Source: a virus (lineage: Duplodnaviria > Heunggongvirae > Uroviricota > Caudoviricetes). From it: 19,155 nucleotides of DNA. The stretch lies in the IMG/VR virus record IMGVR_UViG_3300009856_000010, positions 64,001 to 83,155 of that record. One strand, 5' to 3'. How positions within the stretch are numbered: position 1 is the stretch's first letter; each line of letters starts with the position of its first letter. Of the stretch, positions 5,837 through 15,997 are shown piece by piece. Under the pieces are notes generated by a model. That model was not told the origin of the DNA. It did no database searches and saw only the letters and a program-made list of their open reading frames with translations. The translations under genes and the position numbers were made by a program.

Positions 5837-7285
5837 TTATTTGGTAATATTATACATCAGCTTCACCCCTACCCCATATACATCATAAAGAACTGTCTTT
5901 ATAGTGTCTAAGTGGTACATTTCAAGGTATTCATAAAAGAACTGACTGGGAACACCAATCGTCACCGTGTTATCTTTATATCCCCGATGAATTAAAGGTT
6001 CAAACCAAACCTTATAGATAGACTCTTCAATCTTTTCTTTAATAGTTCCTAAGAATCGTTCCCACTTTTCATTTTCTTCGGTCGAATACACTTCTATATG
6101 TTCCGCTTTTATGGCACTTTTGGGTTTTGCCTTTTCAGATACATCGGCGGATTGCACAATTTTAATTTGTTCTTCCACTTTGGCCTGTTGTTCGGCATCC
6201 AAATCGTCCAACTTCCGTATGCAGCAAGTATATGCCCATGCGCGAAGGTCTTTTACTTTATCGCCTTGCTGAGAAACTTTTGTGTTCAATTCGGTAAGGA
6301 AAGTATCAAAATCATCAATAACATTCTCGTCCAACCGCTTTATGATGGCATTAATATTCGACGCAGTTTGCGCAAAGTTACTTTTCAGAAACTCCTGCAT
6401 CTTAATCTTCCGGGAAACAAAGCCCTGAATATTGGCCGCCTCTTTGCCGGCTTTCGATTGGATGATGATAAACTTCAAGGCTTCGGGTTCTCCCCGCTTT
6501 TTACCGTTCTTGTATACACGCTCAACCTCAAAATAGCAATCGGTTTCGCCGGTTTCGGCTTTAGTGCAAAGCTCTACCCGGGCATCTTCTATCACATTAG
6601 AGTAAAAAGCGCGCCAACGGGTATAAGCATCTTCCAAACGAAGCATTTTGCGCAATTCGGTAATTTTAATAGGCGGCGTGGCTCCTTGCGATTTCCATGC
6701 CGATATAAAAATATAGAGTCGCTGTACATATTTGTTTCGGGTGGAGAATACAACGTCTTTCAAGTATCGGTGTATCCCCATTGATTTAACATCCAGCAAC
6801 CGTAAAGCAATATCTTTTTTTATCTTGATATTTACAGAATTGGCATATCTTTCTTCAGGTATATACACCTCACAAAGTCCGGTATAGCGTTTGTAATCCC
6901 GCCCGTTCTTGTCTTTAACCGGTACTTCAATGCCAACAGTATGCAGCATACTCAACGATTCTTTGAGTTCCTTATATCGCCGTGGATCCGCTCCAAATTC
7001 TTTTAATGGAATTTTGAGCATAATTTCATTCTTCGAGACCTCTTCTTCTCCAAAATCCTGATTGGTAAAAAGCGGCAGCTGCTCCGGCGAACATACATTG
7101 TTTACCACCTGCATGAGCGAATCTTGCAGTTTCTCTATGATAAGCGAGAAAGTACGCCCCTGCGAGGTATTGAAATCGTATCTGGCGTATGCTACAGCTA
7201 CTGGCTGCGACAACCACGTTTGTTCGTTTATCGGGATGATATCCTTAGATATGGCTTTCTTTAGTATTTTCTTAGTCCTTACCAT
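5837..7285 (-). CDS. Rep_3-family plasmid replication initiator with a C-terminal DnaA N-terminal (domain I)-like module
   Basis: Rep_3-type segments (LSQPVAVAYARYDFN, LFEVYIPE-like beta region, KYVQRLYIFISAWK, ITELRKMLRLEDAYTRWRAFYSNVIEDARVEL). The last ~75 aa (WERFLGTIKEKIEESIYKVWFEPL..TVTIGVPSQFFYEYLEMYHLDTIKTVL) match the DnaA domain I pattern. Adjacent to an iteron cluster. Confidence 0.85.
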   Translation of the reverse strand: MVRTKKILKKAISKDIIPINEQTWLSQPVAVAYARYDFNTSQGRTFSLIIEKLQDSLMQVVNNVCSPEQLPLFTNQDFGEEEVSKNEIMLKIPLKEFGADPRRYKELKESLSMLHTVGIEVPVKDKNGRDYKRYTGLCEVYIPEERYANSVNIKIKKDIALRLLDVKSMGIHRYLKDVVFSTRNKYVQRLYIFISAWKSQGATPPIKITELRKMLRLEDAYTRWRAFYSNVIEDARVELCTKAETGETDCYFEVERVYKNGKKRGEPEALKFIIIQSKAGKEAANIQGFVSRKIKMQEFLKSNFAQTASNINAIIKRLDENVIDDFDTFLTELNTKVSQQGDKVKDLRAWAYTCCIRKLDDLDAEQQAKVEEQIKIVQSADVSEKAKPKSAIKAEHIEVYSTEENEKWERFLGTIKEKIEESIYKVWFEPLIHRGYKDNTVTIGVPSQFFYEYLEMYHLDTIKTVLYDVYGVGVKLMYNITK

Positions 7286-7367: not shown

Positions 7368-7969
7368 CGCCACCTAATAGGAACTTTTCTAAGATTAATG
7401 ATTATAGGAAGAAGAATTGTTCCGTTTTAATGGCACTTCATTTTGAATATGTTCCGCTTTTGTGGCGCTTTGAAGTATCGATCCTTATAGATCTTCCTGT
7501 TTATTGGCGAAAGTGTTCCTATTATCTGGCGGGAATCTTCCTGTTTACTGGCGAAAGAGTTCCTGTTTACTGGCGGAAATCTTCCTGTTAGGTGGCGGAA
7601 ATACGCTGTAAATGACTGTAAATAAAACATTTACATACTCCTTATATATTATATATTTCTTATAAGCCTTATAATTAAGAATAAAGATCGACCTCTTTCT
7701 TTTCTTCTCACTAATCAATACATACATGTATAAGAGATAAAACGCACCCAAACAGGAACCCTAACTAAGAACATTATATATTTAATATCGATTCGAGTAA
7801 AAAGAGTTCCGATTTTATGGCGCTTTTCATTCAAAATGGCTAAAAATGTTCCGCTTCTTTGGCGTTTCTCCTATATACGCCTTAAAAATGTTCCTGTTTG
7901 TTGGCGGAAATGTTCCGCTTTTGTGGCGCATTGAGTTTTTCTCTCGTAGAGTGTTCCAACAATTTGGCG
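7368..7969. repeat. Iteron cluster, consensus (G/C)TTCC-N7-TGGC(G/A), 13 copies
   Basis: Starts at 7368 (inverted), 7419, 7451, 7493, 7515, 7537, 7559, 7581, 7806, 7848, 7890, 7912, 7953. Five copies at exact 22-bp spacing (7493-7597); most others 41-42 bp apart (in helical phase). Confidence 0.9.
7598..7805. other. AT-rich unwinding element of the replication origin
   Basis: Very AT-rich stretch (e.g. CTTATATATTATATATTTCTTATAAGCCTTATAATTAAG) directly next to the five phased iterons and bracketed by the second iteron group. Confidence 0.7.
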
Positions 7970-8395: not shown

Positions 8396-9199
8396 TTATG
8401 AATTTAATGGTTCTGGTGATGTTGCTAAAAACTCTTCGACAAAAGCCATGTAGTCTTTGGCTCCGTTGGATGTAGGCGCGTATGAGAGTATATTTCCATC
8501 GTATTCTTGCGACTCAACAATTTTATTATTCCTACGTATACGCGTATTAAATATATCAAAACTCTCATTTAGATCTTTAGAGTATACTTTAGCAGTACTC
8601 AATCGTTCGTCTACCATTACGAGAAGAAAACCACGAATGGTTAACTCTTTGTTAATGGTCTTTTTTACCTCAAGGAACTTAGCGGTTACATTAGCTAATC
8701 CGCGAACGGCAAATGATTCGAGTTGAATAGGTATGAGCAGGCCGGATGCTACACTCATTGCGTTGAGTGTAATAGACCCCATGCTTGGAGGGCAGTCTAT
8801 AATGATGTAATCGAAGTCATGAACGGTGTTCAGCGGTTCATCATAATGCTTATCTATTGGTTCATCGAATACAAAACAAAGTACCTGATTGGGCGACATT
8901 TGTTGACTAAGATAAGGTTCAATTCCGTTTATTTGTTCCGAACTTGGTGTGTAATAAATGCCTGTCTCGGATTTGTAAACTGGTAGTCCTTTTACGTCTT
9001 TCAACGCATCGAATAGCGTGCGACCTTTGTTTTCCAGTTGATGCCACCCGTTGCAAAACGAAGCGTAACGCTGCGAGTCAGCATCAATAATCAATACTTT
9101 AAATCCTTTGATTGTTAAGCCCATGGCAAGGTTTTGGGCTGTGGTGGTTTTGCCTACACCACCTTTATCGTTGGTTACGGCAATGATTTCTTTCAACAT
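8396..9199 (-). CDS. parA: ParA family partition ATPase (type Ib, no N-terminal HTH)
   Basis: Deviant Walker A (NDKGGVGKTTT), VLIIDADSQ, Walker B (DYIIIDCPPS), IPIQLESFAVRGL, TRIRRNNKIVESQ. Confidence 0.95.
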   Translation of the reverse strand: MLKEIIAVTNDKGGVGKTTTAQNLAMGLTIKGFKVLIIDADSQRYASFCNGWHQLENKGRTLFDALKDVKGLPVYKSETGIYYTPSSEQINGIEPYLSQQMSPNQVLCFVFDEPIDKHYDEPLNTVHDFDYIIIDCPPSMGSITLNAMSVASGLLIPIQLESFAVRGLANVTAKFLEVKKTINKELTIRGFLLVMVDERLSTAKVYSKDLNESFDIFNTRIRRNNKIVESQEYDGNILSYAPTSNGAKDYMAFVEEFLATSPEPLNS

Positions 9200-9782: not shown

Positions 9783-9878
9783 CACCCCGTTTCTGGGCGT
9801 TCTGGCGGGGGTAAAAGTAGGGTGGGGGAGTGGAAAATCTGTGATTTTATAGAAGTTTTATAGAGAAAAACTTACAAA

Positions 9879-10187
9879 TCACCATTCGTCGTCATCTTCT
9901 TCAATTTTCTCCATATCTTCTTCAAGTATTCGCTCTTCAATGGCAAGGAAATTCCATCCTTCAGTGAGAATTTTCTCTTGTTCCTTGGAACTTGGTTTTT
10001 CTCCGTCTATCCATTGTATTTCGGCGATGGTAGATATCCATTGATCGTAAGATACAAAATAACTGTCACCTACATCGTAGAATATCGCTACGCGTGGATA
10101 AGATAATTTTATCAGAACTTCACGGCCTGTATAGTGTTGGCGATTCTCGCCTAACCACCAATGTTTATGTGTTTCAATTGGAATCAT
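9879..10187 (-). CDS. Hypothetical protein with acidic tail (102 aa)
   Basis: Flanked by 26-bp motifs; C-terminus EEDMEKIEEDDDEW. Confidence 0.7.
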   Translation of the reverse strand: MIPIETHKHWWLGENRQHYTGREVLIKLSYPRVAIFYDVGDSYFVSYDQWISTIAEIQWIDGEKPSSKEQEKILTEGWNFLAIEERILEEDMEKIEEDDDEW

Positions 10188-10281
10188 TCAATATAAATAT
10201 ATTAGTTATTGCAAAACAGTGATCTTTGAAATTCGCCATAGGCTGTGATTTTTCAGAATCCCCATAGGGCAGGGTAGGGGG

Positions 10282-10644
10282 TTAGTCCTTATCGGCATAT
10301 CGATTGCGATCTCCTTCGGACATGGTGCTTACCCGGAACTCTGCCATTTCCTGAAGCGTGGTGCGTAGTAGTTCCTCCCAATTATCTATGCGTTGCTCAT
10401 AAATATTTTTGAGTCCGCACATAGGCACTACATACACACGATACCCGTTTGCCTTGGCAAAGTATCTGTCGGACTGGCTGTATTTGGATAGGAATTCACG
10501 GCGATCCTGCTCGCGGCTTGCGTTCGGTCCGAAAATGAATACAACGCCGACTATTTGCGGTCCACGGGTTTGAACGATGAGCTGGGCACCGTTGGCGACA
10601 TCGGGATGATTGGCGAAAATATAATCTGGAGCAATGGCTTTCAT
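10282..10644 (-). CDS. Hypothetical protein (120 aa; start revised from 10746)
   Basis: The ORF-track start overlaps the upstream gene and crosses the repeat. ATG 10644 (MKAIAPDY) has an A-rich Bacteroidetes start context. Confidence 0.7.
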   Translation of the reverse strand: MKAIAPDYIFANHPDVANGAQLIVQTRGPQIVGVVFIFGPNASREQDRREFLSKYSQSDRYFAKANGYRVYVVPMCGLKNIYEQRIDNWEELLRTTLQEMAEFRVSTMSEGDRNRYADKD

Positions 10645-10723
10645 TGTTTTTCTGATTTTAAAACGGGTTAAAGATAATGCTATTTTTTCAAAATCTGTGA
10701 TATTTGAGAATCTCCATAGGAGG

Positions 10724-12187
10724 TTATTTCCTCTTTTTATTGACATTCTCCGGTATTCGCCATCCTTTGATGCGGGCTACCTGCTGATTAAACAATGCCC
10801 AAAGATCTTCGTCCCGAAACTCAAAGTGCATGGTACCTTTCTTGTATCCGCGAATACGGAAAAATTCCCAGTCATACCATTTTCCCCACTCCATCGGAAT
10901 GCCTTTAAATTTGAATTGGCCATTATCTTCCTTTTCGCCTAACGTATTGTAAGTAAATGAATTCAGGTTTTGCAGTGAATTATAGTCTTTACCTGTAAGA
11001 TTACAGAGTGCTTTAATAATATCTTCTACATCTTTTGCGTTCCGTGAATCGGTTGATATCCTTACCGTTTCTCTTTTTGTGCCATAAAAATCGCTTTCGC
11101 AAATCCAGGGAATAATAAACCGGCGGTTTACCATATAATCAGAATTTGTTTTCCAATATTCCCCACCGGTACAATTATCTTTCCATGCAAATCCGCAAAT
11201 CAAATCAAAGGCTTCTAACAAAACTTTTCCCATGCGTTCGGAATGTGTGCCTACTATGGTTTTAATCATTATATGTATGTTCTTTACGGTAAATGGTACA
11301 TGTGTTTGTTTCTCTACAAATTCATTTATCTTCTCTTTAACGCCGCGAGTAATGTACTTATCCATTTTCATATCTGAAAAAACTTTCATCCAGGCACTTT
11401 TTTGAAGTTCCTTTTTGAATTCATCCCGGGAAATCTCGGTTTGATACATGCGGTCACCTGTGCGAAATGCACCAAACTTAATCCCATATTTGGAAATGGG
11501 ATCGATTAACGCGTTTAGTTCATTGGAGAGTGGTACAACCTTATCCCACATCTTTACGGCACCCACGTAACGGCTTACAATATCGCGAACGTAATTGTAG
11601 CGAACAATGCTCTCCTGTTCGTAGGCGATTTCTTCATCGTAAGAAAAGTAGTCGGCAAATTCTTCATCGTTGGCCGTGGGTTTGTTCAGGTAGATACAGG
11701 AAACTTCTACAGAGGTTCTGCGTTCTGCATCTTCAAAGCACGGACCAAAATCTAAAGCCCGTCCATATTGGCCAATGAGTGCGCCTATTTCTTGCTGTTT
11801 TTTGGTAGATGCATTCAGTATAATAGATGAATTGCATAAGGATATGATTTGACAACCTGCCGGAGCAATCGCCCAGGCGTGTAGTATATGCGTTTCGTCG
11901 GCCGAGAATGGCGGGTTCATTACAATCATATCGATATGCGATACTTCTACGGATGTCAATGTAAGGAAGTCGTTTGCAATGAGCCGGCATTTGCCGGACA
12001 GGATGCGCGAGAGGTCTTCGTTAATCTCGCAGGCAATAACTTGTTTTGCTCCATTGGCGTTTAGATAGTCTACTATATTGCCTTTGCCGGCAGATGGTTC
12101 GAGTATGGTTTTTCCTGTAATGTCGATGCCTAAAAGCATTTCGGAAATTACATCAGATGGGGTAGGGTAGAAGTCTTTGTTAAACAT
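10724..12187 (-). CDS. Class I SAM-dependent DNA methyltransferase with DUF4942-type C-terminus (start revised from 12232)
   Basis: FYPTP, motif I ILEPSAGKGNI, motif IV MNPPF (amino-methyltransferase) and C-terminal GYKKGTMHFEF. No restriction nuclease nearby, so orphan. Confidence 0.85.
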   Translation of the reverse strand: MFNKDFYPTPSDVISEMLLGIDITGKTILEPSAGKGNIVDYLNANGAKQVIACEINEDLSRILSGKCRLIANDFLTLTSVEVSHIDMIVMNPPFSADETHILHAWAIAPAGCQIISLCNSSIILNASTKKQQEIGALIGQYGRALDFGPCFEDAERRTSVEVSCIYLNKPTANDEEFADYFSYDEEIAYEQESIVRYNYVRDIVSRYVGAVKMWDKVVPLSNELNALIDPISKYGIKFGAFRTGDRMYQTEISRDEFKKELQKSAWMKVFSDMKMDKYITRGVKEKINEFVEKQTHVPFTVKNIHIMIKTIVGTHSERMGKVLLEAFDLICGFAWKDNCTGGEYWKTNSDYMVNRRFIIPWICESDFYGTKRETVRISTDSRNAKDVEDIIKALCNLTGKDYNSLQNLNSFTYNTLGEKEDNGQFKFKGIPMEWGKWYDWEFFRIRGYKKGTMHFEFRDEDLWALFNQQVARIKGWRIPENVNKKRK

Positions 12188-12241
12188 AATAGGATGGGGT
12201 TTTAAAAAACTGTGATATTTGAGAATCTCCATAGGGAAGAG

Positions 12242-12874
12242 TTAAGCCATAACGCTATGAACGCCTGCCATTTGCAAAAAGTCTGTTTCGGTTATAACCT
12301 GTGTACCCATATCCCGAGCGCGTTGCAGCTTTGCTGTTCCGATAACGTCCGACCCGGCAATTAAAAATTGTACGGTGCTGCTAACATCGCGTATAAACTT
12401 GCCGCCGTTCTTCTTTATAAAGAACTCAAATTGTTTGCGCCCCTTGCTCAGTGTACCAGTGATACAGAATGTTTTTCCATTCAGCGGATTACCCGCCGTA
12501 GAAATATGCGCGGGGATTTCTGCCGGAGCTTCCGGCTTTTTCTTTTCCTGGCGTAGTGGGGTAGGGGTTGCATCCTGAATAAGTGTTATGCGTGTTTCGG
12601 TGATCTGCAAAAAATATTCCTCGCTAATAATAGGTATATTGAGCTCTTCTGCCTTACATACCTTTGCGGTTCCGGCGCCTTGTACGGCATCTTCGCCGGC
12701 TATCAGGCAATCTACAGAATCATTGATACGGTTGATTACTTCGCCGCCCAAGGCGGTAATGTATTCGGCAAAGTATTTGCGTTCGTGGCTAAGGGTTCCG
12801 GTGATACAGAATACGCGGTCTTTTATAATTTCGGTTGCGTGAGTTTGGTTTGAAGGGGTAAATATAGGTTTCAT
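12242..12874 (-). CDS. Stand-alone tandem BRCT protein (LigA-type BRCT x2)
   Basis: Two repeats: FCITGTLS..RK......GG......DCLIAG..AK..KA..LNIPIISEEYF and GKTFCITGTLS..RK..IKKNGGK....SSTVQFLIAG..AKLQRA...GTQVITETDF, joined by a P/E/K linker. No ligase catalytic domain. Confidence 0.85.
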   Translation of the reverse strand: MKPIFTPSNQTHATEIIKDRVFCITGTLSHERKYFAEYITALGGEVINRINDSVDCLIAGEDAVQGAGTAKVCKAEELNIPIISEEYFLQITETRITLIQDATPTPLRQEKKKPEAPAEIPAHISTAGNPLNGKTFCITGTLSKGRKQFEFFIKKNGGKFIRDVSSTVQFLIAGSDVIGTAKLQRARDMGTQVITETDFLQMAGVHSVMA

Positions 12875-12977
12875 AAGGATGTAGTTTTAATTGCTGGGGA
12901 TCCGCACGGCCGGGTTCGTAAAAGCTGTGATTTTTGAGAGTTGGCATAGGGACTATGTAGCCCCGAATGGATGTTTG

Positions 12978-13349
12978 TTAATACTCTATATAATAGATTT
13001 CTTTACCATTTGACAAATCTATTGTATAATTGCGGGTATTTGGATAAAATTTCAAACCTGATGGCTCGTGTGCGAAAATATCAGGAAAAGAATAGACTTG
13101 TACCCAATCAGTCCAAAGGCCGTTTTCTTGTTTGGTTCTTTTGTATATTTTCTTAACATCTTCATATCTGCAATCATAGATACGGTTATCTATGCAATAC
13201 TCGTCTAATTTGAATATGTTACCCCTAAATACGATTTGACTATCTTTTAATAAATCATATTTACCTGATGTTATTTGAATCTGATAAGCAGTAGCTTTTA
13301 TGTGAGATTCAACTTCTTTCACTTTATTATAAATATCTTGCTTTTTCAT
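12978..13349 (-). CDS. Hypothetical protein (123 aa; start revised from 13394)
   Basis: The upstream ATG lies inside the 26-bp repeat; ATG 13349 (MKKQDIY) has the better start context. Confidence 0.65.
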   Translation of the reverse strand: MKKQDIYNKVKEVESHIKATAYQIQITSGKYDLLKDSQIVFRGNIFKLDEYCIDNRIYDCRYEDVKKIYKRTKQENGLWTDWVQVYSFPDIFAHEPSGLKFYPNTRNYTIDLSNGKEIYYIEY

Positions 13350-13405
13350 AATTCTATTCTTTATCAAATTTCCGTGATTTTTGAGAACTCCCATAGGCAG
13401 CGGTA

Positions 13406-14686
13406 TTACACCGCTACGCTATTCAATAGATTAATTAACTCGCTTTCTTTTCGCTTGGAGAATATCCAGCCGGCGCGTTTGCTTCCTCCATCATTCAACC
13501 CGGGATTGAACCGGCCGCCTAACTCCTTTAATCTGTCTTTAATAGCTCGGGTATTTCCAAACAGGGCTACGGCCTTTTCTGAATAATCCACCAAAGAAAA
13601 GGAAGAAGGAACCGCCGGGGTTTCCGGATCCTGTGATTTTTCAGAATCTCCATAGGCGGGAGCTTCTTCAGGGGTTTCGCTGGCGGGTTGCTGCTTGCGT
13701 TCCCATTCCTTTTGCGCTGCATCAGCGGCGCGGTCCTCTTCTACTAATGCCTTTTCGATTTCGGGAGTGTAACCAACAAATTCTATACTATAATATTTGT
13801 TTCCGATAATACGGGTAATGATTCCGGCTTCGGTCAATTTATTTGCGCGCTTGTTAGCTTGTGCGTAACTGGAGTAATCAAGCGTATAGAATGTTTTTTC
13901 GCTGTAATATTTATCAACCCCAAGAAGTACACGCATGCCGTTCTTTCGTTCTATTGGTGCAAAATATGCGGTACCTAATGCTTTTCTTATTGCTTTATGT
14001 GCTGGGCCTTCCGGACGTTTAAATTCTGGAGAAACTTTCCCGCCTGTACGTCTGGATTTTGGTACCTCTATGCGATAAGGATGATCACCGTTTCCGGCTT
14101 CCAGGCTGAAATAAAAGTTTGTATCAAAATAATCTGTCATAGCATCACTATTATCATATCTATATGAATTAACATAATCAGCAATATTGTTGAATACTTC
14201 TTTGGCCCTATCAGTCAGATTTTTATTTTTGTCTATGTGATAAACATTGATGCAGTCACTTGTTGCATCTGGTTTGAACATCTCAAAATCAGCAATTAAT
14301 ATGGATACATAGATAGAACTATAATGATGCAACCGTACAGAAAACTTATAATCTGGATATGTTTCTTTTAACCATTTACGAATATTAGCGGTTATTTCCT
14401 TATTGTCTTGTCCATTATAGCGGCTACCTTTCCAGCGGTACTCATTGTAAACGTGTTCAGTATATTCCTGGGCGGTGGCTTCGTTGTAGTCGTTTTCATA
14501 ACCGGTGTACATTGTTTCAGTTGCCGCCGGTTTGGACTTCCAAACGTTATACAACTTTTCAAACTCAGCATTAATACGCTGCATGCTTTCGGTGTTTCCG
14601 CCTCTGTCAGGATGATTAGCAAGAGTTAACGCTCTATATTGTTTCTTTAAATCTGAAAGGCTGGTGATGTGATTAAAATAATTCAT
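13406..14686 (-). CDS. J-domain / LPD29-like multidomain protein
   Basis: N-terminal DLKKQYRALTLANHPDRGGNTESMQRINAEF (DnaJ HPD motif). Central IRKWLKETYPDYKFSV...YVNSYRYDNSDAMTDYFDTNFY (large polyvalent protein domain LPD29-like). C-terminal YSEKAVALFGNTRAIKDRLKELGGRFN..GWIF module. Confidence 0.8.
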   Translation of the reverse strand: MNYFNHITSLSDLKKQYRALTLANHPDRGGNTESMQRINAEFEKLYNVWKSKPAATETMYTGYENDYNEATAQEYTEHVYNEYRWKGSRYNGQDNKEITANIRKWLKETYPDYKFSVRLHHYSSIYVSILIADFEMFKPDATSDCINVYHIDKNKNLTDRAKEVFNNIADYVNSYRYDNSDAMTDYFDTNFYFSLEAGNGDHPYRIEVPKSRRTGGKVSPEFKRPEGPAHKAIRKALGTAYFAPIERKNGMRVLLGVDKYYSEKTFYTLDYSSYAQANKRANKLTEAGIITRIIGNKYYSIEFVGYTPEIEKALVEEDRAADAAQKEWERKQQPASETPEEAPAYGDSEKSQDPETPAVPSSFSLVDYSEKAVALFGNTRAIKDRLKELGGRFNPGLNDGGSKRAGWIFSKRKESELINLLNSVAV

Positions 14687-14768
14687 GATGTATTTTGTTT
14701 GAGTTGCCGGGGATCCGCCCGGCCGGGTTCGTTATATTATAATCTGAAATAAATGATAGAAATTTATA

Positions 14769-15098
14769 CTATGCCGTCTTTGCTTTATAGTATTCATCTT
14801 CCAGGATATCACCGGCTATTATCCAAACAAATCGTACTAAGTTTGTGTAATGATCCGAGCAATCCCAATCGCAATAATCAGATAAGCAACTGGCTAAGCT
14901 TTCCGGGCTAATGTGTTCTAATTGACTGGCTACTTCAGGAAGTTCCATTACTCGGCGGCAATCTTCTTCACAATCACCGGCATGACTACATAATAGTATT
15001 TGCTCGCCCGTTAATGTCAAATCTAACTGATAATCTAAAGACCAAGAATAATTTTGTTCCGGATTTATCGCACTTGATAATATCAATGCAGTTTTCAT
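14769..15098 (-). CDS. Hypothetical acidic, Cys-containing phage protein (109 aa)
   Basis: Operon position; CSHAGDCEEDC and DHYTNLVRFVWIIAGDI segments; function unknown. Confidence 0.65.
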   Translation of the reverse strand: MKTALILSSAINPEQNYSWSLDYQLDLTLTGEQILLCSHAGDCEEDCRRVMELPEVASQLEHISPESLASCLSDYCDWDCSDHYTNLVRFVWIIAGDILEDEYYKAKTA

Positions 15099-15129
15099 AA
15101 TGATAAGTTTTAGAATGATTAAGACTTTA

Positions 15130-15237
15130 TTAAAATTCGCTATCCTGATGGTTATTGATGAAATCTTTTAGTTTATCAGGATCCACACCGGTGGCAATAA
15201 TTACCACCGTGAGAATAATTATTAATAAGATAAACAT
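15130..15237 (-). CDS. Small single-pass membrane protein (35 aa; below the ORF-track cutoff)
   Basis: MFILLIIILTVVIIATGVDPDKLKDFINNHQDSEF*; starts 2 nt after the stop of 15240..15467 and fills the intergenic gap. Confidence 0.6.
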   Translation of the reverse strand: MFILLIIILTVVIIATGVDPDKLKDFINNHQDSEF

Positions 15238-15239
15238 AA

Positions 15240-15467
15240 TTACTTCAATTTGCCAAAGCCGGTATACCATCCGCTTGTACCTCTATCACAATTTTCTATG
15301 CGTACTTCATGTACACGCTTCAACCAACCGGCTCCTTTTCGTTTTAATGTGGTTATTACTTGATTGATACAATGAAAATTAGAATCATACACCATAGCAA
15401 TTATATTGCCATTACTGTCATAGCTGGTAGCCTTAATTGTGTCGCTTTCGTAAATTCGATTAGCCAT
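15240..15467 (-). CDS. Hypothetical protein (75 aa), first gene of the early/accessory operon
   Basis: Follows a consensus promoter and the 22-bp leader motif. Confidence 0.7.
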   Translation of the reverse strand: MANRIYESDTIKATSYDSNGNIIAMVYDSNFHCINQVITTLKRKGAGWLKRVHEVRIENCDRGTSGWYTGFGKLK

Positions 15468-15525
15468 AATGGTAAGTTTTGAGTTATCGGGGATCCGCCC
15501 GACCGGGTTCTCATTAACTGATATA

Positions 15526-15556
15526 CAAATGTACGGTATAAATTTGAATTACCAAA
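15526..15556 (-). promoter_or_regulatory. Bacteroidetes sigma-A promoter of the accessory operon
   Basis: TTTG (15556-15553), 19-bp spacer, TACATTTG (15533-15526): exact consensus. Confidence 0.8.
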
Positions 15557-15997
15557 ATATTTGCACGGAAAAATTAATTAATTCGTTATTATTTATTGTA
15601 TTAATATGTTTTTATTCGATTGTTCCATTTTAATAATGAAATTATCGGGTTAAATATTCTTTTTCCCTATGTAGATTCAATTTTATTTTCTCTCAATTTC
15701 TTAGAGGTTAATAATCTAAATACTGCGTTATAGATACTTTAAACAACCTATGCATATATCAACCGTCTAAAAACAGGCGTGCGAGATAGCCGCCCGTAGC
15801 GTGGCGGTTGATTTTCGTCGAGAAGGGAGTAGTTTAAAAAGTTTCTATTCTTGAAAATCAGTTAGTTACGATAATATTTGGAAAGCGTTATAAGTGTATT
15901 ATGTAAAATATAATATAAATAATTGTAATAATATAGTGTCTAAAATTAATTATTATCAAAACGAAAACAGCTATTATATGTTATTAAGTTTTTGACA

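Follow-up and report, generated by a model that had tools for sequence, protein, structure and literature searches.

The window analyzed here, the whole 19,155-nt stretch covering positions 64,001 to 83,155 of a virus record of the Caudoviricetes (IMG/VR IMGVR_UViG_3300009856_000010), contains the head of a leftward early operon. Three exact matches to the degenerate 22-mer GAACCCGGYCGKGCGGATCCCC were found in it, all on the minus strand (Table 1). The initial annotation stated that this sequence precedes three genes at a constant distance, and the gaps to the ATGs were indeed 21, 22, and 21 nt. No fourth match was found in the window even when up to three mismatches were allowed, none of 200 dinucleotide shuffles produced any match, and the full 83,155-bp record contained the identical three copies and no others. 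Conservation of the 22-mer extends 12 nt further in the 3′ direction (RRYAAYTMAAAC), giving a total of about 34 nt. The copies are spaced 0.8-1.8 kb apart: copy 3 (c3) is located in the 5′ UTR of the first gene, copy 2 (c2) is intercistronic, beginning 38 nt past the stop codon of a 109-aa ORF, and copy 1 (c1) precedes the twin-BRCT gene. When the G+C content of the richest 22-nt window in the 60-nt upstream region was compared among 109 ORFs, the three element-bearing genes occupied ranks 1 to 3, with 20, 18, and 17 G+C of 22 (ORF median, 11). Positions -19 to -1 of the same genes are AT-rich, with a G+C content of 0.26 vs an ORF mean of 0.27. The closeness of the element to the ATG may partly reflect compaction, because intergenic gaps are short in this phage.

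Upstream of c3, pattern scans identified a perfect match to what we take, from the Bacteroidota consensus, to be a host-type promoter, and this promoter is predicted to drive leftward transcription of the early operon. Between its end and c3 there are 15 nt, in agreement with the earlier description of this copy as lying just downstream of a consensus promoter. A 26-bp motif belonging to another repeat family ends 7 nt before c1, the same spacing as had been described.

Table 1. Features of the early-operon head on the minus strand of the window (hairpin loops in square brackets)
Feature	Position	Strand	Remarks
Promoter TTTG-N19-TAcaTTTG, presumed host type (Bacteroidota)	15526..15556	-	Pattern scans, perfect match
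Copy 3 (c3)	15477..15510	-	22-mer 15489-15510; conserved 3′ extension to 15477
c3 hairpin GUCGGG[CGGAUC]CCCGAU	15486-15503	-	
Start codon, 75-aa first early gene	15465..15467	-	
Copy 2 (c2)	14697..14730	-	22-mer 14709-14730
c2 hairpin GCCGGG[CGGAUC]CCCGGC	14706-14723	-	-12.4 kcal/mol
Start codon, DnaJ/LPD29 gene (426 aa)	14684..14686	-	N-terminus M-x-Y-F kept in homologues
26-bp motif CCTATG..AAAATCACAG, copy of other repeat family	12925..12950	-	
Copy 1 (c1)	12884..12917	-	22-mer 12896-12917
c1 degenerate hairpin, two mismatches	12893-12910	-	
Start codon, twin-BRCT gene (210 aa)	12872..12874	-	

The element is the core of a longer leader cassette, about 45 nt in length, that lies close to the start codon. 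Eight further copies, in three sequence subtypes, were found in two related IMG/VR phages (G001 and G002), where they head the first genes of the same early operon as in this record (G000). The cassette consists, in order, of an AT-rich run, an invariant G-A-(A/C)-C-C-C-G box, a 4-6-bp G+C hairpin with a loop that begins with CGG, an A-rich initiation region, and the ATG. All 11 copies are intergenic and on the coding strand, at the head of the early operon within its first ~2.6 kb. The G-A-n-C-C-C-G sequence is invariant in 11/11 copies; G000 and G001 share only 44-48% identity in their homologous proteins. The pairing of the 26-bp motif with the GC element recurs ahead of g4 and h4 in G001 and G002. 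The genes downstream of the cassettes belong to unrelated families, all non-structural, and many of them carry polyvalent-protein domains (DnaJ+LPD29, LPD5+LPD1+MutS_I, and BRCT). When a profile of the 11 copies was searched against 1.44 Mb (four related genomes and 152 related loci), nothing else was detected at E≤0.01, with the next match at E=1.3, and the related phage G003 carries no copy. The carriers are, as far as these sequences tell, a small clade of gut Bacteroidales-type tailed phages consisting of this record, G001, and G002.

Pattern scans of IMG/VR added no members to the family. The only extra match to the 22-mer pattern there was one chance match in G+C-rich coding DNA, a stem-free pattern gave no matches, the B-type pattern of G001 matched G001 only, and the A/C-type pattern matched G001 and G002 only. 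A pattern scan of metagenomes gave at least 122 matches. The 122 matches listed were all in unrelated, mostly G+C-rich DNA, and the AT-rich tail was absent from the 25 of them that were examined. Two pattern scans of genome contigs and searches of GenBank phages by DNA returned no match, and four GenBank contigs that were examined all lacked the element. Among loci with homologues of the downstream genes, the element was present in 1/67 DnaJ/LPD29 loci (G001) and, among 44 loci of DUF4942 methyltransferase homologues, in G001 only. Because a single DnaJ/LPD29 locus of 67 carries the element and G003 has none, those genes can dispense with it.

We next compared the position of the copies relative to promoters and start codons. 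A perfect TAnnTTTG -7 box is located within 80 nt upstream in 3/11 copies only (c3, g1, and h1), which are the first copies of each phage. One-mismatch -7 boxes lie upstream of c2 and g3, and six copies have none. Since no copy other than the first of each phage follows a perfect host -7 box, the remaining eight copies are probably transcribed as internal parts of the operon. The distance from promoter to element varies, from 15 nt for c3 to about 37-38 nt for g1 and h1, whereas the distance from element to ATG is constant within each subtype (43-44 nt for D, 30-31 nt for A and C, and 34 nt for B). These results indicate that the element is anchored to the start codon and not to the promoter.

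The initial annotation also proposed a covarying hairpin. Within this genome, one compensatory change (GCCGGG/CCCGGC vs GUCGGG/CCCGAU) supports the proposal, and the lone G.U pair, in c3, is compatible with the sense strand only. However, c1, the copy ahead of the ATG at 12874, breaks two pairs, as had been noticed, and does not fold into the CGGAUC-loop hairpin. The predicted minimum free energies were also no better than those of shuffles (p = 0.065-0.75 for all 11 cores against 2000 shuffles; z-scores of -1.2 to +0.9 in one set and -0.4 to -1.6 in another). Across the three phages, the hairpin is present in 10/11 copies, and its arms differ by subtype at the homologous place (GCCGGG/CCCGGC, CGGC/GCCG, GCGGC/GCCGC, and GCCGG/CCGGC). 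In a model-fitted alignment, which is biased toward the proposed structure and contains only about four independent sequence types, 89.3% of cells pair compared with 72.9% in shuffles, and 0/500 shuffles reached 89.3%. Slid controls of this alignment paired at 15-48%, and two pairs are altered on both sides (CG/GC/UA and CG/GC). A covariance model built from subtypes D and A alone retrieved subtype C at E~0.005. By contrast, in a neutral MAFFT alignment, 61% of cells pair, with a shuffle mean of 58% and 68/500 shuffles reaching 61%, and RNAalifold proposed only a 3-bp invariant CCG/CGG pairing without covariation. Clear pairing and the two both-sided changes come only from the structure-fitted alignment, and covariation in the neutral one is weak; the evidence is mixed, and we consider the support for a covarying hairpin to be no more than moderate. 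In c1, the two stem changes are uncompensated, yet 20/22 letters are kept, a pattern that would fit selection for the sequence better than selection for the structure, and the invariant GAnCCCG box lies outside the stem. As for known RNA families, Rfam gave no match at gathering score in the whole window. At E≤10, five matches were obtained in 12800-15650, of which four miss the elements; snoZ169, on the plus strand at 14661-14710, overlaps 2 nt of c2 with 21.1 bits vs a gathering score of 55.

Translation in the host phylum does not use Shine-Dalgarno sequences. The initial annotation called GC-rich leaders unexpected given the unstructured, AT-rich initiation regions of Bacteroidetes. In Flavobacterium johnsoniae, as described in PMC6847099, a low-structure zone spans -20 to +20, and A at -3, -6, -12, and -13 favors initiation. 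The hairpin in this phage ends at -19/-20, just outside such a zone, and the conserved 3′ extension places A at -12/-13, so that in this genome the leader is less surprising than it first seemed. In G001 and G002, however, the hairpin ends about 6-9 nt before the ATG, inside the low-structure zone.

We also examined where homology between G001 and G002 ends. In the early region, it is mostly confined to intergenic stretches of 46-123 bp. Four HSPs of 63-123 bp at cassettes stop no more than about 10 nt from the ATG, one 399-bp HSP links a shared gene to a B cassette and reaches 6 nt beyond the ATG, and one extends 36 nt into a shared small gene. Apart from the shared ones, the cargo genes behind the cassettes differ between the two phages. 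The cassette thus appears to be a homology stretch at which relatives exchange gene modules.

Several other identities were considered for the element and rejected. It could be read in a coding frame (EPGRADP), with both variable letters at third codon positions, but in-frame stops are located just upstream of c2, c3, and all G001 and G002 copies. A 52-aa ORF that starts at an ATG within the 26-bp motif was rejected as spurious, the motif being located between genes in G001-G003. Rep3-type iterons are tandem 17-22-bp direct repeats beside the rep gene, and an iteron-like array of a different sequence (22 bp x 5.1) is found elsewhere, at 7491-7602, next to rep (5837-7285). For parS sites, ParA is far from the elements in G001, and for an ECF-type two-block promoter, no consistent -10 block was seen by eye at 16-17 nt. 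A 115-aa protein (P0001) co-occurs with the element in 3/3 genomes and is missing from G003; it was dropped as a trans-acting partner since its conservation across many Bacteroidota genomes (64-82% identity) indicates that it is not specific to the element.

As a tentative explanation, with somewhat less than an even chance of being correct, we propose that the element is a transcribed cis-acting leader that doubles as a recombination linker. The cassette would form part of the early mRNA, with the first copy of each phage in the 5′ UTR behind the host-type promoter and the others between cistrons, and would act as RNA, in cis, on the cistron that follows it. Because the hairpin borders the ribosome landing zone on its upstream side here and lies within that zone in the two relatives, it would set translation initiation and/or shield a processed 5′ end, possibly together with a factor that reads the single-stranded GAnCCCG box. 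The same cassette would provide a stretch of homology for the exchange of gene modules between relatives. The suggestion in the initial annotation of a cis-acting element that marks sub-modules of the early operon is strengthened by the homologous family in two phages and by the breaks at or near start codons; its active form may be either RNA or DNA bound by a protein. A more specific version, in which the GAnCCCG box and the CGG-loop hairpin constitute an RNA operator read by a putative phage or host factor, we consider unlikely.

If DNA is the active form, the element could be an asymmetric site for a phage repressor or silencer, with a monomer on T(W)TA(R)GAnCCCG blocking initiation or elongation in the early operon, for example while the phage persists as a plasmid-like prophage. 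We consider this unlikely. It would fit the position of the invariant part, an asymmetric box some 12 nt long, beyond the hairpin, the orientation of 11/11 copies along transcription, the retention in c1 of the sequence and not the stem, and the presence in the record of a Rep3-type initiator with iterons and of ParA. The stoperators of cluster A mycobacteriophages are, as described in PMC9283540, likewise asymmetric sites (13-mers) in short intergenic spaces with an orientation that follows transcription, but they are bound by a known immunity repressor and number more than twenty across the genome in L5. Here, there are 3-4 copies per genome at a single operon head, with a hairpin alongside, and neither a repressor nor another candidate binding protein was found. 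Position is also fixed relative to the ATG and not to promoters, and the G+C part varies among subtypes within one phage yet remains self-complementary, which a sequence-reading protein leaves unexplained. Insulation of each gene by a strict PeSL cassette, whose stem-loop attenuates or terminates incoming transcription and whose promoter restarts it, seems improbable. The PeSLs of T4-type phages (PMC2839356) share with the cassette an AT-rich part and a G+C stem-loop, and their descriptions include subclasses with stem-loops downstream of the -10 box. In both systems, homology between relatives is confined to the cassette and the flanked genes differ, which suggests that modular shuffling uses the cassette as a linker; here the cassette is also found in the variable early region, homology ends at start codons or close to them, and c2 scored as terminator-like on the plus strand. 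However, each PeSL has a Shine-Dalgarno sequence as well as a strong sigma-70-type promoter, and PeSL stem-loops were shown to terminate transcription (PMC2839356). Unlike PeSLs, 8/11 copies lack a perfect host -7 box, the coding-strand hairpin is not followed by a U-tract, the terminator scan flagged 0/3 copies on the minus strand, the best-conserved part is the non-paired GAnCCCG box, and the host phylum is not SD-using.

The breakpoints at the cassettes would also fit an element with no regulatory role, a recombination linker or small selfish repeat tolerated at gene boundaries, and the absence of the element from close functional equivalents (G003 and 66/67 DnaJ/LPD29 loci) and a hairpin energy at chance level point the same way. 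We nevertheless find this quite unlikely, as the box and architecture are kept between phages with shared proteins only 44-48% identical, and the family is limited to one strand and one operon head in 3/3 phages. Two further possibilities, a folded recombination site of integron-like cassettes and a hairpin promoter for a phage RNA polymerase as in N4, are very unlikely. The differing genes behind the cassettes in G001 and G002 might suggest the former, and N4 early promoters are likewise short G+C hairpins in three copies. Integron attC sites, however, are imperfect inverted repeats of 57-141 nt with RYYYAAC/GTTRRRY ends and a cognate tyrosine recombinase, whereas the stem here is 4-6 bp in an element of at most 34 nt, and such ends were not seen by eye. 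Tyrosine recombinase (PF00589) matches were obtained in G001 and G002, and none in G000 or G003; no homologue of the G000 serine recombinase was present in G001-G003, which also led us to reject invertase sites. With respect to a phage polymerase promoter, no RNA polymerase was found, the 2056-aa protein being a tape measure, and the first copy is already behind a perfect host promoter.

The cis-acting leader that we tentatively favor can be compared with two other systems. Lambda-type nut sites consist of boxA and a boxB hairpin just past the early promoter, once per operon, and are not linked to start codons. The cassette resembles them in its single-stranded conserved box and small hairpin with a conserved loop downstream of an early promoter, but it differs from them in features of the loop and stem, and an N-like protein was not found here. 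The SAS/ESAS repeats of cluster K mycobacteriophages, as described in PMC3203893, are also short, asymmetric, and G+C-rich, share a single orientation, and are restricted to the half of the genome with non-structural genes, where they precede the start codons of unrelated genes by a short and nearly constant distance, often with an inverted repeat; a role in translation initiation or in binding a factor was suggested for SAS. The conserved 13 bp of SAS include an SD-like AGGAG, are separated from the start codon by 3-7 bp, and occur dozens of times per genome (PMC3203893). Unlike SAS, the element here, present in 3-4 copies, leaves 6-19 nt between its end and the ATG, lacks an SD or AGGAG, and is unrelated in sequence.

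Early gene control in Bacteroidota phages is little understood, and their hosts initiate translation without Shine-Dalgarno pairing. A compact, portable early leader would offer a handle on this control and would show how new early genes join the operon. If the cassette proved to be an RNA operator, a factor would co-ordinate the translation, or the processing and stability, of immediate-early genes through start-codon-proximal control of a kind new for Bacteroidota phages, in hosts of a phylum with ribosomes that disregard Shine-Dalgarno sequences, and the cassettes would be movable in front of any newly gained gene. If the cassette sets expression, it would be a usable genetic part in the engineering of Bacteroides; were it a recombination linker only, PeSL-like modular shuffling would be documented outside T4-type phages.

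The GAACCCGGYCGKGCGGATCCCC pattern matched three times in the window, all on the minus strand, and the whole 83,155-bp record (G000) contained the same three matches and none besides. No matches occurred in 200 shuffles, and a window scan allowing ≤3 mismatches gave no extra sites. The gap from element to next ATG was 21, 22, and 21 nt, confirming the initial annotation that a GC-rich 22-mer precedes three genes at constant distance. The conserved stretch extends 12 nt beyond the 22-mer (RRYAAYTMAAAC). Among 109 ORFs, precisely these three genes had the most G+C-rich upstream 22-nt windows, and their positions -19 to -1 were AT-rich to the same degree as those of other genes. Copy c3 had also been placed just downstream of a consensus promoter; indeed, it lies 15 nt from the end of a perfect TTTG-N19-TAnnTTTG promoter, which has the host-type (Bacteroidota) consensus.

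The window forms the final 19,155 bases of G000, an IMG/VR virus record with 41.6% G+C and a CheckV completeness of 86%, and the minus strand carries nearly all genes of the window. The gene content of G000 includes a tape measure protein, a tail fibre, a diversity-generating retroelement, several DNA methyltransferases, a Rep3-type initiator with iterons, and ParA. Homologues of the initiator were found on Prevotella, Bacteroides, and Phocaeicola plasmids. Iteron array, initiator, and ParA together suggest a plasmid-like replication/partition module in a tailed phage.

Outside G000, no copy of the 22-mer was found in IMG/VR, in GenBank phages, or in prokaryotes (one representative genome per species); among the metagenome matches listed, all were in unrelated, mostly G+C-rich DNA. 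At loci L096, L098, L105, L125, L167, L175, and L178, on G+C-rich metagenomic contigs, the chance match was embedded in a common sequence, ..TTGGTGCA-GAACCCGGCCGAGCGGATCC.., which looks like a separate conserved sequence in unrelated bacteria. Relatives were reached through neighbouring genes and the 26-bp motif CCTATGG-N10-AAATCAC, which is the window's other repeat family. One of the 44 loci with a DUF4942 methyltransferase homologue, the 95-kb record G001, carried this motif plus G+C-rich elements before start codons, and a motif scan retrieved G002 (53 kb), G003 (65 kb), and G004 (31 kb). G001 and G002 have four elements each, all on the coding strand, preceding the first genes that follow a long AT-rich stretch with a host-type promoter. 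These eight elements divide into three subtypes (A, B, and C), and the three window copies make up a fourth (D). In G001, a repeat of ~57 nt (GACGACGAAGGCCGGCGGCC...) occurs in three tandem copies immediately before the early promoter region. When all 11 copies were aligned, G-A-n-C-C-C-G was invariant, with T(W)TA(R) before it. Searching four genomes and 152 related loci (1.44 Mb) with the 11-copy profile gave nothing further at E<=0.01 (next match E=1.3). G003 was without the G+C element, though it shares the operon layout and carries the 26-bp motif, and among 67 DnaJ/LPD29 homologue loci the element preceded that gene only in G001. The initial observation was confirmed and its scope widened to three phages, with 11 family members in all.

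The distance from element start to ATG was constant within each subtype (D, 43-44 nt; A and C, 30-31 nt; B, 34 nt), whereas that from promoter to element varied (15 nt for c3; 37-38 nt for g1 and h1, the first copies in G001 and G002), and a perfect -7 box lay upstream of only 3 of the 11 copies, the first in each phage. These results indicate that the element is part of the initiation region of the downstream gene and not of the promoter, and that eight copies lie inside the operon. In G000, the hairpin ends at -19/-20, the conserved tail places an A at -12/-13, and two of the three copies have an A at -3; in G001 and G002, its end is ~6-9 nt upstream of the ATG. For Flavobacterium johnsoniae, one study describes lowered structure over -20 to +20 and initiation favoured by A at -3, -6, -12, and -13 (PMC6847099).

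The covarying hairpin that had been proposed was only partly borne out: c2 and c3 fold as claimed and c1 does not, covariation was weak on a neutral alignment, and pairing was clear only on a structure-fitted one. Several results count against a selected structure. Fold stability did not exceed that of shuffled sequences (for G000, z = -1.2 to +0.9; for G001, z = -0.4 to -1.6; 29-nt cores of all 11 copies against 2000 shuffles, p = 0.065-0.75). On the neutral MAFFT alignment, the proposed stem paired in 61.3% of cells versus 58.1% in shuffles (reached by 68/500), the covariation score was 0.091 versus 0.048 (17/500), and RNAalifold offered no more than an invariant 3-bp CCG/CGG pairing. In favour of a conserved hairpin, a covariance model trained on subtypes D and A alone recovered both C copies (E about 0.005) and, weakly, the B copies (E 0.07-1.4). 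On the model-fitted alignment, which is biased towards structure, 89.3% of cells paired versus 72.9% in shuffles (0/500) and 14.8-48.2% in slid controls, with both-sided changes at two pairs (CG x6/GC x2/UA x1 and CG x6/GC x3). Given this bias, an alphabet of nearly all G and C, and about four independent sequence types, we consider a conserved hairpin plausible but not demonstrated.

No Rfam family matched the element. In-frame stops just upstream of two of the three window copies and of every G001 and G002 copy exclude coding sequence, and the Rep iteron array is located elsewhere. A recombinase-linked site was rejected since PF00589 matches were confined to G001 and G002 and none of the relatives has a homologue of the G000 serine recombinase. 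No phage RNA polymerase was found, nor does the element form a canonical intrinsic terminator on the coding strand. P0001, a 115-aa protein of no known family, co-occurs with the element, and its homologue is the first early gene in G001 and G002, directly behind the A-type element; however, many Bacteroidota genomes (Parabacteroides, Flavobacterium, Chryseobacterium, and others) encode proteins 64-82% identical to it, and it therefore does not qualify as a partner specific to the element. Elsewhere in G000, the leader of an Abi-like gene contains a hairpin, GACCTCCC...GGGGAGGTC (-19.2 kcal/mol, p 0.02), lying 10 nt beyond a second promoter (TTTGGTAATTCAAA...) that is near-identical to the early promoter.

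The 26-bp motif, CCTATGG-N10-AAATCAC(A/T)G in full, has 8 minus-strand copies in the window (9839-13656). In G001-G004, it is followed by a T-run and sits 20-30 nt ahead of true start codons, so its internal ATG is probably not a start codon; the 138-aa ORF would then begin at 13349 instead of 13394, with similar shifts for the ORFs whose listed starts are 12232 and 10746. Within the 426-aa DnaJ/LPD29 gene, one copy falls precisely where the conserved N-terminal part (residues 1-332) meets a C-terminal extension, and its in-frame reading is YGDSEKS in G000 and YGDGEKS in G001. Other relatives have a protein that terminates immediately ahead of this position, with a separate ORF after it.

Table. 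Elements, associated genes, and shared segments
Feature	Location	Strand	Detail
Element c1 (subtype D)	window 12896-12917	minus	
Element c2 (subtype D)	window 14709-14730	minus	
Element c3 (subtype D)	window 15489-15510	minus	
Subtype A	G001/G002	coding	GAMCCCGCCGGCCGGATAGCCGC
Subtype B	G001/G002	coding	GAMCCCGGCGCCGGMCCGGTWAACCGGC
Subtype C	G001/G002	coding	GACCCCGCGCGGCCGGTWGCCGC
Gene behind a window copy			75 aa, no known family
Gene behind a window copy			DnaJ+LPD29, 426 aa
Gene behind a window copy			twin-BRCT, 210 aa
Polyvalent-domain early genes	window 13406-14686, 12242-12874, 10724-12232		
Polyvalent-domain early genes	G002 L289:10522-12900	minus	
Rep3-type initiator gene	window 5837-7285		
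Iteron-like array	window 7491-7602		22-bp period, 5.1 copies; adjoins initiator gene
ParA	window 8396-9199		
26-bp motif, examples	window 12925-12950, 13372-13397, 13631-13656, 12210-12235, 10695-10720, 10243-10268	minus	
26-bp motif in DnaJ/LPD29 gene	window 13631-13656; G001 L025:4781-4806		
~57-nt tandem repeat	G001 L025:1727-1900		
P0001	G000 genome 12405-12752	plus	115 aa
Second promoter and hairpin leader	G000 genome 14724-14835 (L013)		outside window
A cassette HSP	G001-G002		123 bp; ends 4 nt past ATG
C cassette + 26-bp motif HSP	G001-G002		92 bp; ends 3 nt past ATG
Two B cassette HSPs	G001-G002		63 and 66 bp; end 6 and 10 nt past ATG
Shared gene + B cassette HSP	G001-G002		399 bp; ends 6 nt past ATG
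HSP at cassette	G001-G002		93 bp; extends 36 nt into shared small gene

In a blastn comparison of the early regions of G001 and G002, most HSPs were short and intergenic (46-123 bp); three shared stretches were longer. The cargo behind the cassettes differs: the C type stands before DnaJ+LPD29 in G001 and before LPD5+LPD1+MutS_I in G002, and the BRCT gene has the element upstream in G000 and a host-type promoter with a different leader in G001-G003. The genes behind the cassettes, and their neighbours, carry domains (LPD29, LPD5, LPD1, MutS_I, DnaJ, BRCT, and DUF4942 methyltransferase) that characterise the polyvalent proteins found in phages and conjugative elements, here spread over separate early genes. 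The same behaviour, homology at the cassettes with different genes behind, is described for the promoter-early stem-loop (PeSL) cassettes of T4-type phages (PMC2839356). That the element is a true PeSL-type attenuator is quite unlikely in our estimation. A linker without function would share these boundaries too, but we regard it as distinctly improbable: proteins common to G000 and G001 are only 44-48% identical, yet the G-A-n-C-C-C-G box is invariant. A stoperator-like DNA site is an unlikely, if somewhat better, candidate. Subtypes A, B, and C, with different self-complementary arms, stand side by side in G001, which speaks against recognition of an inverted repeat by a dimeric protein; the differing arms fit RNA and single-stranded DNA alike and do not tell these apart.

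Our tentative preference is for a leader cassette that would be transcribed and anchored to the start codon, would act in cis upon the cistron behind it, and may double as a linker in gene exchange. A limited literature search on Bacteroides phages returned no description of such a leader element. The element belongs to a known sort of phage element, of which it is a previously undescribed variant.
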